From Escherichia coli (GTDB lineage: Bacteria > Pseudomonadota > Gammaproteobacteria > Enterobacterales > Enterobacteriaceae), in the NCBI RefSeq assembly GCF_013315695.1, contig NZ_CP054353.1: a DNA stretch of 64,000 nt. One strand, given 5' to 3'. Every line of letters begins with the position of its first letter. Position 1 is the first letter of the stretch. The notes under the pieces were generated by a model. The model saw nothing but the letters and a program-made list of their open reading frames with translations. It was not told the origin of the DNA and made no database searches. The translations under genes were made by a program, and so were the position numbers. Shown in pieces: positions 16,003 through 28,633 of this stretch.

Positions 16003-16017
16003 GGTAATGACTCCAAC

Positions 16018-16521
16018 TTATTGATAGTGTTTTATGTTCAGATAATGCCCGATGACTTTGTCATGCAGCTCCACCGATTTTGAGAACGACAGCGACTTCC
16101 GTCCCAGCCGTGCCAGGTGCTGCCTCAGATTCAGGTTATGCCGCTCAATTCGCTGCGTATATCGCTTGCTGATTACGTGCAGCTTTCCCTTCAGGCGGGA
16201 TTCATACAGCGGCCAGCCATCCGTCATCCATATCACCACGTCAAAGGGTGACAGCAGGCTCATAAGACGCCCCAGCGTCGCCATAGTGCGTTCACCGAAT
16301 ACGTGCGCAACAACCGTCTTCCGGAGCCTGTCATACGCGTAAAACAGCCAGCGCTGGCGCGATTTAGCCCCGACATAGCCCCACTGTTCGTCCATTTCCG
16401 CGCAGACGATGACGTCACTGCCCGGCTGTATGCGCGAGGTTACCGACTGCGGCCTGAGTTTTTTAAGTGACGTAAAATCGTGTTGAGGCCAACGCCCATA
16501 ATGCGGGCTGTTGCCCGGCAT
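16018..16521 (-). CDS. insB: IS1 InsB (transposase C-terminal part; expressed as InsAB' by -1 frameshift)
   Basis: 167-aa [56 protein letters not shown]... Confidence 0.93.
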
Positions 16522-16715
16522 CCAACGCCATTCATGGCCATATCAATGATTTTCTGGTGCGTACCGGGTTGAGAAGCGGTGTAAGTGAACTGCAGTTGCC
16601 ATGTTTTACGGCAGTGAGAGCAGAGATAGCGCTGATGTCCGGCGGTGCTTTTGCCGTTACGCACCACCCCGTCAGTAGCTGAACAGGAGGGACAGCTGAT
16701 AGAAACAGAAGCCAC
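16440..16715 (-). CDS. insA: IS1 InsA (transposition repressor / transposase N-terminal part)
   Basis: 91-aa [45 protein letters not shown]... with zinc-finger-like Cys pairs. Confidence 0.93.
16458..16466 (-). promoter_or_regulatory. IS1 programmed -1 ribosomal frameshift site (A6C motif)
   Basis: Plus strand GTTTTTTAA is the reverse complement of TTAAAAAAC in the insA/insB overlap. Confidence 0.7.
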
Positions 16716-16770
16716 TGGAGCACCTCAAAAACACAATCATACACTAAATCAGTAAGTTGGCAGCATCACC

Positions 16771-16779
16771 TGTGGCAAT
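16771..16779. repeat. right copy of 9-bp IS1 target-site duplication TGTGGCAAT
   Basis: See left copy. Confidence 0.9.
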
Positions 16780-18422
16780 TATTGTTAATGATAATGGCCT
16801 GAAAGCAGGAACGCGTTTTCCGGATGAGCTGGAATTAATTGAACATATTCCCCAGGGGCATAAAGTCGCATTGCTGGACATTCCAGCTAATGGTGAAATT
16901 ATTCGTTATGGCGAAGTGATTGGTTACGCCGTGCGCGCAATCCCACGCGGAAGCTGGATCGACGAATCAATGGTTGTACTACCGGAAGCGCCGCCGTTAC
17001 ACACGCTGCCACTGGCAACCAAAGTCCCGGAACCCTTACCGCCGCTGGAAGGATACACCTTTGAGGGCTATCGCAATGCCGATGGCAGCGTGGGCACTAA
17101 AAACCTGCTCGGCATCACCACCAGCGTCCACTGTGTAGCAGGCGTGGTGGACTATGTAGTAAAAATCATTGAACGCGATCTGCTACCGAAATACCCGAAC
17201 GTCGATGGCGTGGTGGGGCTGAATCATTTGTACGGCTGTGGCGTGGCGATTAACGCACCGGCGGCAGTTGTGCCTATTCGTACCATCCACAATATTTCGC
17301 TGAACCCTAACTTTGGCGGCGAAGTAATGGTGATTGGTCTGGGTTGTGAAAAGTTGCAGCCTGAGCGCCTGCTGACTGGAACGGATGATGTGCAAGCTAT
17401 TCCAGTAGAAAGCGCCAGCATTGTCAGTTTGCAGGATGAAAAGCATGTCGGCTTTCAGTCCATGGTCGAGGATATTTTGCAGGTCGCCGAACGCCATTTG
17501 CACAAACTGAATCGACGGCAGCGAGAAACCTGTCCGGCTTCAGAACTGGTTGTTGGCATGCAGTGCGGTGGCAGCGATGCGTTTTCTGGCGTAACGGCAA
17601 ACCCGGCGGTTGGGTATGCGTCTGATCTACTGGTGCGCTGCGGCGCAACGGTGATGTTTTCAGAAGTCACGGAAGTGCGTGACGCGATCCATCTGCTGAC
17701 ACCACGCGCAGTGAACGAAGAGGTCGGCAAACGGCTGCTGGAGGAGATGGAGTGGTACGATAACTATCTCAATATGGGAAAAACCGACCGCAGCGCCAAC
17801 CCTTCGCCGGGCAACAAGAAAGGCGGTCTGGCAAATGTGGTGGAGAAAGCGCTCGGCTCCATTGCTAAATCGGGTAAAAGTGCAATTGTTGAAGTGCTGT
17901 CGCCCGGCCAACGCCCGACTAAACGCGGATTAATTTACGCCGCGACGCCAGCCAGCGATTTTGTCTGTGGCACGCAACAGGTGGCTTCGGGTATCACCGT
18001 GCAAGTGTTTACGACCGGTCGCGGTACGCCGTACGGCCTGATGGCGGTACCCGTCATTAAAATGGCAACCCGCACCGAGCTGGCGAACCGCTGGTTTGAT
18101 TTAATGGATATTAATGCGGGCACCATCGCTACCGGCGAAGAAACTATTGAAGAGGTGGGCTGGAAGTTGTTCCACTTTATTCTCGACGTCGCCAGCGGGA
18201 AGAAGAAAACCTTCTCAGATCAATGGGGACTGCATAACCAGCTGGCGGTGTTTAACCCAGCACCGGTGACCTGATTTCTTTTGGAACGTCCCTCGCAAAA
18301 CATGGCCTTAGTGCCATGTTTTTATTGTTTAAAGTCCCCACGTCCATTAATAATGCATTTGCATTACCTTAGTTCAAGCTTATAATTTGAGCAGAAAACA
18401 GGCTGTAAAAGGACAGTGAATC

Positions 18423-18758
18423 ATGCCCGCTAATGCTCGCTCTCACGCTGTACTGACCACTGAATCAAAGGTCACGATACGCGGACAAACAACTATCCCC
18501 GCGCCAGTGCGTGAGGCCTTAAAACTGAAGCCAGGCCTGGACAGCATTCATTACGAAATTCTGCCTGGTGGGCAAGTATTTATGTGCCGACTGGGAGATG
18601 AACAGGAGGATCATACTATGAATGCATTTTTGCGTTTTCTGGATGCAGATATCCAGAACAACCCGCAAATAACTCGTCCATTCAACATTCAACAAGGAAA
18701 GAAACTTGTCGCAGGCATGGACGTCAACATTGATGATGAGATTGGCGACGACGAATAA
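18423..18758 (+). CDS. prlF: type II antitoxin PrlF (SohA)
   Basis: 111-aa ORF MPANARSHAVLTTESKVTIRGQTTIPAPVREALKL... (AbrB/SpoVT-like swapped-hairpin N-terminus), immediately upstream of yhaV. Confidence 0.88.
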   Translation: MPANARSHAVLTTESKVTIRGQTTIPAPVREALKLKPGLDSIHYEILPGGQVFMCRLGDEQEDHTMNAFLRFLDADIQNNPQITRPFNIQQGKKLVAGMDVNIDDEIGDDE

Positions 18759-26856: not shown

Positions 26857-26868
26857 GAGGATCGCATT

Positions 26869-27729
26869 ATGAGCATTATCTCCACCAAATATCTGTTACA
26901 GGACGCCCAGGCCAATGGCTACGCGGTGCCTGCCTTTAACATTCATAACGCCGAGACGATCCAGGCGATCCTCGAAGTGTGCAGTGAAATGCGATCGCCG
27001 GTGATCCTCGCCGGGACGCCGGGGACCTTTAAACATATCGCGCTGGAAGAGATCTACGCCCTGTGTAGTGCCTATTCCACAACCTACAACATGCCACTGG
27101 CGCTGCATCTCGACCACCACGAATCGTTGGATGATATTCGCCGTAAAGTCCACGCAGGCGTGCGCAGTGCGATGATCGACGGCAGCCACTTCCCGTTTGA
27201 CGAGAACGTAAAGCTGGTGAAATCGGTTGTCGACTTCTGCCACTCACAGGATTGCAGCGTGGAAGCAGAACTGGGCCGCCTCGGCGGTGTTGAAGATGAC
27301 ATGAGCGTTGACGCCGAAAGTGCATTCCTGACCGATCCACAAGAAGCTAAACGCTTTGTCGAACTGACTGGCGTCGACAGCCTGGCGGTAGCGATTGGTA
27401 CGGCGCACGGCTTATACAGCAAAACGCCGAAGATTGATTTCCAGCGGCTGGCGGAAATTCGTGAAGTGGTGGATGTTCCTCTGGTGCTGCATGGTGCCAG
27501 CGATGTCCCGGATGAATTTGTCCGTCGCACTATTGAACTTGGCGTCACAAAAGTGAACGTTGCCACAGAATTAAAAATAGCCTTCGCTGGCGCGGTTAAA
27601 GCCTGGTTTGCAGAAAATCCGCAGGGTAATGATCCTCGTTATTATATGCGCGTCGGTATGGATGCGATGAAAGAAGTTGTCAGAAATAAAATTAATGTCT
27701 GTGGTTCAGCGAATCGAAATTCAGCATAA
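26869..27729 (+). CDS. kbaY: tagatose-1,6-bisphosphate aldolase catalytic subunit KbaY (AgaY)
   Basis: 286-aa [40 protein letters not shown]..., class II aldolase. Confidence 0.92.
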
Positions 27730-27880
27730 TCATTAGTTTTTTATGATTTATCCCAATGTACTTCCCGATTAATATCGGGGAGTGCCTTAATGGAAAAGGA
27801 GATAACTAAACCTTAATAAATACATCAGTAAAATATCGCAACAATAATATATTTTAAAAAATTATGGTAATGACTCCAAC

Positions 27881-28384
27881 TTATTGATAGTGTTTTATGT
27901 TCAGATAATGCCCGATGACTTTGTCATGCAGCTCCACCGATTTTGAGAACGACAGCGACTTCCGTCCCAGCCGTGCCAGGTGCTGCCTCAGATTCAGGTT
28001 ATGCCGCTCAATTCGCTGCGTATATCGCTTGCTGATTACGTGCAGCTTTCCCTTCAGGCGGGATTCATACAGCGGCCAGCCATCCGTCATCCATATCACC
28101 ACGTCAAAGGGTGACAGCAGGCTCATAAGACGCCCCAGCGTCGCCATAGTGCGTTCACCGAATACGTGCGCAACAACCGTCTTCCGGAGCCTGTCATACG
28201 CGTAAAACAGCCAGCGCTGGCGCGATTTAGCCCCGACATAGCCCCACTGTTCGTCCATTTCCGCGCAGACGATGACGTCACTGCCCGGCTGTATGCGCGA
28301 GGTTACCGACTGCGGCCTGAGTTTTTTAAGTGACGTAAAATCGTGTTGAGGCCAACGCCCATAATGCGGGCTGTTGCCCGGCAT
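27881..28384 (-). CDS. insB: IS1 InsB
   Basis: 167-aa ORF identical to copy 1 InsB. Confidence 0.93.
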
Positions 28385-28578
28385 CCAACGCCATTCATGG
28401 CCATATCAATGATTTTCTGGTGCGTACCGGGTTGAGAAGCGGTGTAAGTGAACTGCAGTTGCCATGTTTTACGGCAGTGAGAGCAGAGATAGCGCTGATG
28501 TCCGGCGGTGCTTTTGCCGTTACGCACCACCCCGTCAGTAACTGAACAGGAGGGACAGCTGATAGAAACAGAAGCCAC
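28303..28578 (-). CDS. insA: IS1 InsA
   Basis: 91-aa ORF; differs from copy 1 at one residue (CSVTDG vs CSATDG). Confidence 0.93.
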
Positions 28579-28633
28579 TGGAGCACCTCAAAAACACCAT
28601 CATACACTAAATCAGTAAGTTGGCAGCATCACC

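Follow-up and report, generated by a model that had tools for sequence, protein, structure and literature searches.

Two copies of IS1 lie about 11.1 kb apart on the same strand of an Escherichia coli chromosome and enclose a block of genes. Are they the arms of one mobile unit, is one the offspring of the other, or did they come to be neighbors through separate events? In a 64,000-nucleotide stretch of DNA (the window), a repeat search and a base-by-base comparison bore out the coordinates and direct orientation given by the first-pass annotation: the direct repeat has a start-to-start spacing of 11,863 bp, insA/insB are carried by the minus strand in both copies, and no inverted repeats were found in the window. 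IS1 terminal sequences occur at only these two places within the 64 kb (0 expected from shuffles). Aligned in register, 16003-16770 and 27866-28633 differ at exactly 2 of 768 bp (99.74% identity), with G at 16678 versus A at 28541 and A at 16735 versus C at 28598. These mismatches are the two differences already quoted as evidence that the copies are not identical (GTAGCTG/GTAACTG and ACACAATCAT/ACACCATCAT), and there are no others. The interval between them (16771-27865; 11,095 bp) contains garD', prlF-yhaV, agaR, kbaZ-agaVWEFA, agaS, and kbaY according to RefSeq annotation transferred from strain MSB1_4I, in agreement with the gene content first proposed. Apart from the two garD parts, which are listed with copy 1 below, the genes of the interval and those downstream are as follows.

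18423-19222, plus strand: prlF-yhaV, a type II toxin-antitoxin pair (annotation transfer; Pfam families)
19277-20086, minus strand: agaR repressor (annotation transfer)
20335-25351, plus strand: kbaZ-agaV-agaW-agaE-agaF-agaA, the N-acetylgalactosamine phosphotransferase system (PTS) and catabolism genes, apparently intact (annotation transfer)
25702-27729, plus strand: agaS-kbaY (annotation transfer)
28883-31235, plus strand: agaC-agaD-agaI, intact, downstream of the second IS1 and without the IIB partner (annotation transfer)

Like the IS1A/IS1R isoform of E. coli IS1, both elements are 768 bp long, carry insA and insB' with an A6C motif, and are associated with a 9-bp duplication and AT-rich targets. 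Their terminal inverted repeats are imperfect (18 of 23 positions match between IRL and IRR), and the canonical end sequences are found exactly in both. In each copy insA encodes 91 amino acids, and a −1 frameshift at A6C (IS1 nt 307) yields a fused InsAB' of 232 amino acids, which matches the NCBIfam model NF033558 (transpos_IS1) with 245 bits against a cutoff of 100 (E = 6e-73). Judging from these reading frames, the transposase of both copies is apparently functional. Each copy is 99.9% identical (1 mismatch) to elements that carry the annotation IS1A in thousands of genomes (BL21 and E. coli C among them) and differs from canonical IS1A by one private single-nucleotide polymorphism (SNP), which lies at IS1 nt 36 in copy 1 and produces InsA A13V in copy 2. 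A13V is also found elsewhere, in other IS1 isoforms.

Copy 1 interrupts garD, the galactarate dehydratase gene, by simple insertion behind nt 77; it is the most recent event at the locus and younger than copy 2. Its features are as follows.

15926-16002, plus strand: garD 5' fragment, nt 1-77, severed by copy 1 (annotation from MSB1_4I and AF3; empty site in AF3)
15994-16002, no strand: left 9-bp target-site duplication TGTGGCAAT, present once at the uninterrupted site in AF3 and MSB1_4I
16003-16770, minus strand: IS1 copy 1, IS1A type, 768 bp (best matches 99.9%, none exact; NF033558)
16018-16521, minus strand: insB' frame of copy 1
16440-16715, minus strand: insA of copy 1, with the A6C frameshift site intact
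16735 (IS1 nt 36): private SNP, next to and downstream of the −10 hexamer in the promoter predicted for insA
16771-16779, no strand: right 9-bp target-site duplication TGTGGCAAT
16771-18274, plus strand: garD 3' remainder, codons 24-523

The perfect 9-bp duplication on its flanks has a chance probability of ~4e-6. The garD 3' remainder has an open frame from a TTG inside IS1 (16757, in frame) or from a GTG at 16772, and the copy 1/garD junction lies within a hybrid site that resembles a promoter (TTGGCA-17-TATTGT, 16757-16785), so that the in-frame IS1 start and this site may leave some expression of an N-terminally truncated GarD possible. An exact look-up of the 505-amino-acid remnant starting at TTG gave no match. 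The 500-amino-acid remnant produced by the insertion is encoded in 11 independent short-read contigs from several samples, and the copy 1 junction was not found among 5,426 complete E. coli genomes.

Copy 2 lies in the kbaY-agaB spacer and is, by the states kept in relatives, the older of the two. The following features belong to it.

27857-27865, no strand: AAAAATTAT, the one repeat left of the original 9-bp duplication (comparison with AF3)
27866-28633, minus strand: IS1 copy 2, IS1A type, 768 bp (only exact match, the orthologous element of MSB1_4I)
28541: private SNP (A) giving A13V in InsA and InsAB'
28634-28844, plus strand: agaB 3' remnant, nt 267-477 (annotated as a pseudogene in the transfer from MSB1_4I)

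Flank comparison detected no target duplication at copy 2 in the window. AF3 has the orthologous IS1 at the same kbaY-agaB site with AAAAATTAT on both sides and with agaB and garD intact. Recovered from AF3, the segment lost in the window is 305 bp long, begins directly at the IRL of copy 2, and comprises one copy of the duplication, 30 bp of leader, and the first 266 nt of agaB. Copy 2 thus lacks a target duplication because this adjacent deletion removed one of the repeats. Among the 5,426 complete genomes, only MSB1_4I, in which garD is intact, shares the agaB deletion junction, which is also present in the NCTC genome GCA_900448625.1; the kbaY-side junction occurs exactly only in AF3 and MSB1_4I. 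The target-site duplication of copy 1, its absence at copy 2, and the deletion truncating agaB are features on which the first-pass annotation was silent.

IS1-promoted adjacent deletions are classically known from the gal region, and the 305-bp loss is a classic event of this type. A second IS1 that had entered agaB transiently and then recombined with copy 2 could equally account for it, the two products being indistinguishable. Missing target duplications normally result from adjacent deletions or IS-IS recombination, often in series of insertion followed by deletion (PMC11708052). As in the IS adjacent deletions reviewed there, the loss begins exactly at one IS end, leaves the element and its other flank untouched, and takes the duplication with it; the series of insertion first and deletion second is likewise visible in relatives. 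The loss here differs in being small (305 bp) and inseparable from recombination with a transient IS1.

The pair is most readily explained as the by-product of independent IS1 events in an IS1-rich E. coli lineage (~40 copies), a stepwise series and not a unit; we assign this reading a probability of about 0.9. An IS1A element would first have entered the very AT-rich kbaY-agaB spacer, generating the 9-bp duplication AAAAATTAT, a state kept in AF3. Copy 2 would then have gained its one SNP (InsA A13V) and, by intramolecular transposition, promoted the one-ended 305-bp adjacent deletion from its IRL end, erasing one copy of the duplication together with the 266 nt of agaB nearest the promoter; MSB1_4I and the NCTC genome GCA_900448625.1 preserve this stage. 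Another canonical IS1A, not copy 2, would next have entered garD after nt 77 in the same orientation with the duplication TGTGGCAAT, as is seen in the window and several short-read assemblies. The SNP at IS1 nt 36 would have been acquired by copy 1 last, in the window strain only. The proposed donor of copy 1 is another canonical IS1A copy. The closeness of the two copies is statistically unremarkable and expected by chance, since ~40 IS1 copies in 5.27 Mb should give ~1.7 same-orientation neighbor pairs within 11.9 kb.

Two intact direct IS1 copies around a cargo, each with an apparently functional transposase, recall Tn9, and the 12.6-kb IS1-interval-IS1 segment might be read as a composite transposon that arrived, or is actively moving, as a unit. 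As in Tn9 and other IS1-flanked composite transposons, direct IS1 copies do flank a cargo segment. Unlike in Tn9, the 11-kb cargo is ancestral chromosomal DNA that still sits at its native position, the outer flanks show no duplication (TGTGGCAAT versus ACAAACGGT), copy 1 has a duplication of its own, and each IS has a separate history. Chromosomes without copy 1 (AF3 and MSB1_4I) match the interval collinearly at 99.96% identity or more, and the description of the bracketed segment as chromosomal backbone is thereby upheld. Neither foreign cargo nor the IS1-interval-IS1 unit in another context was found, and the interval is on no genuine plasmid: the plasmid matches were mislabeled chromosomes or fragments in some cases and Klebsiella aga clusters at 78% identity in others. 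The "plasmid" NZ_MG591698.1, which carries the region, was discounted on the basis of its chromosomal synteny. We consider a composite origin extremely improbable and reject it, given the missing outer duplication, the native synteny, and the lack of plasmid copies.

Reinsertion nearby is frequent for IS elements, and a spacing of 11 kb in the same orientation would suit a local hop, with copy 1 as the daughter of copy 2. This descent is very unlikely. The A at 28541 was already in copy 2 of MSB1_4I before copy 1 existed, and the corresponding base of copy 1 is the canonical G in the window as well as in the independent contig L029, so that reversion or gene conversion would be required. L029 stems from another sample, and the 109 nt of copy 1 read there show the canonical base at each of the two variable positions. 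As a single private SNP separates each copy from the canonical, widespread IS1A sequence, copy 2 did not serve as the template of copy 1, and we reject the daughter origin on this SNP distribution in MSB1_4I and L029. The earlier view that neither copy is a fresh duplicate of the other thus stands, on stronger ground than the mismatches themselves, since the SNP private to copy 2 is already present in MSB1_4I, which is without copy 1. That one or both copies are collapsed or misplaced repeats of the assembly is a negligible possibility, even though IS1 is highly repeated in the lineage (at least 40 matched places in MSB1_4I) and the copy 1 junction is in none of the complete RefSeq genomes. 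The perfect duplication at copy 1 and the distinct SNP in each copy argue against an artefact. Moreover, copy 2 and its junctions are present in three independent assemblies (AF3, MSB1_4I, and NCTC GCA_900448625.1), and both inner junctions were recovered in independent short-read contigs from other samples. One contig (ENA ERZ27238783 k111_21334; 11,313 bp) corresponds to 16662-27974 of the window and reaches 109 nt into IS1 at each end. On the strength of these recovered junctions an assembly artefact, which the first-pass annotation had named as grounds for abandoning its description, was rejected. Copy 1 aside, MSB1_4I is 99.98 to 100% identical to the window.

Direct repeats of 768 bp are classical substrates for homologous deletion or amplification, and the two copies, at 99.74% identity over this length, are long direct repeats of high identity. 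By textbook reasoning it is plausible that RecA-dependent recombination could excise the 11.1-kb interval or amplify it in tandem, a latent property. The r-determinant of NR1/R100 and the IS1-flanked argF segment of K-12, likewise bracketed by direct IS1 repeats, are excised or amplified by homologous recombination, as experimentally documented; unlike in these cases, excision or amplification of the gar/aga interval is predicted only. A descendant deletion product with the copy 1 left junction was not found among the 5,426 complete genomes. LH13-b has the order garD', a single IS1, and agaB, an independent natural scar almost exactly analogous to the product expected from such a deletion. We know of no obvious selection for gar/aga gene amplification. 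The prlF-yhaV pair was considered as a barrier to deletion of the interval and rejected in that role, as many natural deletions remove it. For users of the strain, the 11-kb interval would be losable or amplifiable by recombination; it contains the PrlF-YhaV pair and the whole N-acetylgalactosamine pathway, and short-read assemblies break at both of its ends.

Many independent IS1-scarred deletions of this region are found in other E. coli lineages. In ~30 of the 5,426 genomes, IS1 elements of differing isoforms join garD within its first ~380 nt at no fewer than 13 distinct positions, most of them with loss of garD-prlF-yhaV-aga(-yra); 11 of 12 fetched garD-IS1 loci are deletions from garD to agaB, agaD, yraH, yraI, or yraJ; and ~30 genomes have an IS1 in or near the kbaY-agaB spacer. 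Together with the occurrence of the garD::IS1 state in several samples, these counts could suggest that the insertions became fixed because loss of galactarate and galactosamine catabolism is advantageous, the pair being an intermediate stage in a recurrent loss of garD-aga(-yra) that IS1 drives and selection favors. We regard such selection as unlikely. Both insertion sites are locally 77 to 100% AT (versus 49% for the window), which fits the known target preference of IS1, and a mutational hotspot would be explanation enough; the enrichment could be estimated only roughly, and the Aga genes are still intact in the window. It is accordingly with considerable doubt that we would see the garD 5' end and kbaY-agaB/yra as hotspots of convergent IS1-mediated loss, and the window as a rarely seen two-IS1 "pre-deletion" state, driven by selection beyond target preference alone. 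The independent IS1 events favored here offer a clean natural example of an IS1 series of insertion, adjacent deletion, and second insertion, resolved across sequenced relatives. The phenomenon is ordinary for an IS1-rich strain, and no concept is changed by it; the recurrent garD-anchored, IS1-scarred deletions could justify surveying E. coli systematically for metabolic genes lost through IS activity. A literature search for garD or galactarate with IS1, agaB with IS1, and MSB1_4I retrieved nothing relevant.

Two pseudogenes, garD and agaB, are explained by these events, and a galactarate-negative, galactosamine-negative phenotype is predicted. With garD inactivated, no growth on galactarate would be expected. 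A galactosamine PTS without its IIB subunit, combined with polarity on agaCDI, should render the strain Gam negative, and the N-acetylgalactosamine genes are predicted to remain intact. The genes agaBCD serve galactosamine uptake within the agaS-kbaY-agaBCDI operon (PMC3668189). In K-12, a 2.3-kb deletion without an IS removed agaW'-agaE-agaF-agaA' and left the strain Aga− Gam− (PMC3668189). Like that deletion, the lesion in the window is a natural one that abolishes part of the Aga/Gam pathway in the same 13-gene cluster; unlike in K-12, IS1 has truncated agaB alone and left the Aga branch intact. AgaE of the window carries a private substitution, V174A (at 23411), and an exact look-up of this protein gave no match. 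The private SNPs are biased toward transitions, which may hint at a mutator. The PrlF allele of the window is widespread (e.g., CP003034.1), and the matches to it always have an intact garD.

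A repeat scan of the 14- to 31-kb part of the window returned a single long direct repeat with a spacing of 11,863 bp and no inverted repeats. An in-register comparison set the repeat extent at 768 bp (16003-16770, copy 1, matching 27866-28633, copy 2; 99.74% identity), with an 11,095-bp interval (16771-27865) between the two IS1 copies. Canonical IS1 ends occur in the window only at these copies, with zero expected by chance. In both, insA (91 aa) and insB' lie on the minus strand and the orientation is therefore direct, as the first-pass annotation had proposed. Either copy has an A6C slippery site at IS1 nt 307 and encodes a 232-aa InsAB' fusion matching NCBIfam NF033558 (IS1 family transposase) at 245 bits (cut-off, 100 bits), and the terminal repeats match at 18 of 23 positions. 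Exactly two mismatches separate the copies, 16678 G versus 28541 A and 16735 A versus 28598 C, and these are precisely the two differences that had been read from the sequence. Being 99.9% identical (one mismatch) to IS1A-annotated elements of very many E. coli genomes, both copies are ordinary IS1A elements.

The surrounding DNA is E. coli chromosome (tdc operon, gar, aga, rsmI, lpoA, nusA-infB-pnp, on to folP/ftsH), 99.98 to 100% identical to the related strain MSB1_4I (NZ_LR898874.1) except for copy 1. Annotation transfer to the window placed the genes as follows.

15926-18274: garD, interrupted
18423-19222: prlF-yhaV
19277-20086, minus strand: agaR
20335-25351: kbaZ-agaVWEF-agaA
25702-27729: agaS-kbaY
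28634-28844: agaB remnant
28883-31235: agaCDI

The agaI-rsmI (yraL) gap is only 49 bp in this lineage (31236-31284); the yraHIJK fimbrial operon, located there in K-12-like strains, is missing from the window, MSB1_4I, and a second relative, AF3 (NZ_OZ547117.1), alike. The related NCTC assembly GCA_900448625.1 lacks 1 nt in a run of C within agaC (2148-2163 of locus L018, about window 29405), which splits the gene into calls of 84 and 177 aa; the cause is either a genuine frameshift or a homopolymer error of long reads.

Copy 1 is a simple insertion. The sequence TGTGGCAAT abuts it on either side (15994-16002 and 16771-16779) and is single at the uninterrupted site of AF3 and MSB1_4I, which places the IS1 after garD nt 77. 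Neither of its junctions was found in any of 5,426 complete RefSeq E. coli genomes. Eleven short-read contigs encode a 500-aa GarD remnant starting at the GTG of codon 24, and contig k111_21334 of ENA ERZ27238783 (11,313 bp, corresponding to window 16662-27974) extends 109 nt into IS1 past both the garD and the kbaY junction, exactly the short-read assembler breakage expected for an interval between two IS1 copies. The copy 1 insertion is thus real and shared with other samples.

Copy 2 sits between kbaY and agaB'CDI, inside the agaS-kbaY-agaBCDI operon, and lacks a target duplication in the window, its flanks AAAAATTAT and ACAAACGGT being different. AF3, in which agaB and garD are intact, carries an IS1 with the position and orientation of copy 2 and with AAAAATTAT on either side. 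Compared with AF3, the window misses 305 bp starting exactly at the IRL (left terminal repeat) end of copy 2, namely, the second copy of the duplication, a 30-bp leader stretch, and agaB nt 1 to 266. MSB1_4I is the only one of the 5,426 complete genomes with this very deletion junction; its agaB is annotated as a pseudogene, and its garD is intact. Assembly GCA_900448625.1 shares the junction. Copy 2 is the older element and bears the signature of an IS-promoted adjacent deletion, and the series of insertion followed by deletion fits the order recorded in evolving E. coli for IS elements (PMC11708052). The 305-bp loss could also stem from recombination of copy 2 with another, transient IS1 that had inserted into agaB, the product being the same as that of the adjacent deletion.

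The two variable positions order the events. The AF3 IS1 has the canonical base at both. The MSB1_4I element matches copy 2 exactly and shares its 28541 A, which causes an A13V change in InsA. Other, more divergent IS1 isoforms at unrelated loci likewise carry A13V, so the change is probably harmless. At the position equivalent to 28541, copy 1 keeps the canonical G; its own private change (16735, IS1 nt 36) falls on the base directly after a TATGAT −10 hexamer predicted upstream of insA by a promoter scan. Contig L029, from an independent sample, shows a copy 1 with the canonical base at each of the two positions; the 16735 change is therefore confined to the window strain, as a new mutation or a mis-call. 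This distribution indicates that copy 1 derived from another canonical IS1A copy and not from copy 2. Copy 1 is not an old insertion but the youngest event, and the earlier view that neither copy is a very recent duplicate of the other holds, since MSB1_4I already has 28541 A.

Seven substitutions distinguish the window from its closest relatives (16735, 23411, 26346, 26640, 31451, 35980, and 42015; compared with MSB1_4I at all sites and with AF3, GCA_900448625.1, or L029 where covered). Six are transitions (4 AT>GC, 2 GC>AT), 4 of the 6 coding changes are nonsynonymous, and 4 of the 7 lie within the 11.2 kb bracketed by IS1 (post hoc, nominal binomial p ~0.02). Such a spectrum may point to a mismatch-repair mutator or to errors in the source assembly.

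The pair has a Tn9-like architecture, but three findings speak against movement as a unit: no duplication links the outer flanks, the cargo is at its native chromosomal place, and no genuine plasmid in the plasmid collection carries the interval, the matches there being chromosomes or fragments filed under the wrong label, or Klebsiella aga clusters of 78% identity. The latter, on several K. pneumoniae plasmids of 170 to 190 kb (H281-H287), comprise agaR-kbaZ-agaVWE...kbaY at ~78% identity to the window aga genes; in Klebsiella, plasmids thus carry Aga catabolism, which has no connection with the IS1 pair. MSB1_4I and AF3 have at least 40 IS1 matches each. At 40 copies per 5.27 Mb, chance alone should give ~1.7 pairs of same-orientation neighbours no more than 11.9 kb apart, and the pair therefore needs no special explanation. 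It is the incidental outcome of two IS1 events, independent and well understood, in a lineage rich in IS1. The pair is real and the first-pass reading of it was essentially right, but the finding is ordinary.

We infer that garD is split after codon 25 and that AgaB is missing 89 residues from its N terminus. An in-frame TTG inside the IRL (16757), together with a hybrid promoter-like site, TTGGCA-17-TATTGT, spanning the garD/IS1 boundary (16757-16785), could in principle, by consensus match only, yield GarD without its first 23 residues. An in-frame TTG in the IS1 end reads into the truncated host gene at both IRL junctions (16757-16785 and 28620-28634), giving remnants of 505 aa (GarD) and 74 aa (AgaB), which is probably a coincidence (~1 in 9 chance). 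The galactosamine uptake genes are agaBCD (PMC3668189). The N-acetylgalactosamine branch appears intact.

The window's pair, 768 bp long at 99.74% identity, belongs to a class of direct repeat classically known to support RecA-dependent excision or tandem amplification, with Tn9, the NR1 r-determinant, and the K-12 argF segment as examples, and may recombine in the same way. Searching the 5,426 complete genomes with the garD-flank/IS1 junction revealed IS1 within the first ~380 nt of garD in ~30 (~16 in the same orientation, ~16 opposite), spread over at least 13 distinct positions and representing different IS1 isoforms. Only 1 of 12 fetched loci, Z1323CEC0012, is a simple insertion. In the other 11, non-garD DNA follows the IS1 (agaD', the kbaY-agaB spacer with intact agaB, yraH, yraI', or yraJ'); these are independent IS1-scarred deletions of garD-prlF-yhaV-aga(-yra). 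One of them, LH13-b (garD nt 161, IS1, spacer-agaB), is nearly the predicted product of recombination between copies 1 and 2. These comparative data from other E. coli show that the interval is dispensable and that such losses do occur.

The kbaY-agaB spacer (86 to 100% AT; window 27730-28633 region) and agaB look like a second IS1 hotspot, with IS1 in or near the spacer in ~30 complete genomes, at many positions up to ~600 bp from the kbaY side. In one clonal group, an IS1 interrupts agaB ~100 bp upstream of the junction seen in the window. Local AT content is 77 to 100% in both target regions, versus 49% for the window, and AT-rich targets are a known IS1 preference; a mutational hotspot is thus sufficient for the recurrent hits, and selection behind recurrent garD-aga loss is possible. 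Another IS1-associated deletion joins yraI to yhbO in NZ_MG591698.1 (21898-22595 of locus L017), a 353-kb "plasmid" of E. coli PN43 that has the chromosomal synteny yhaC-gar-aga-yraHI and is probably a chromosomal fragment.
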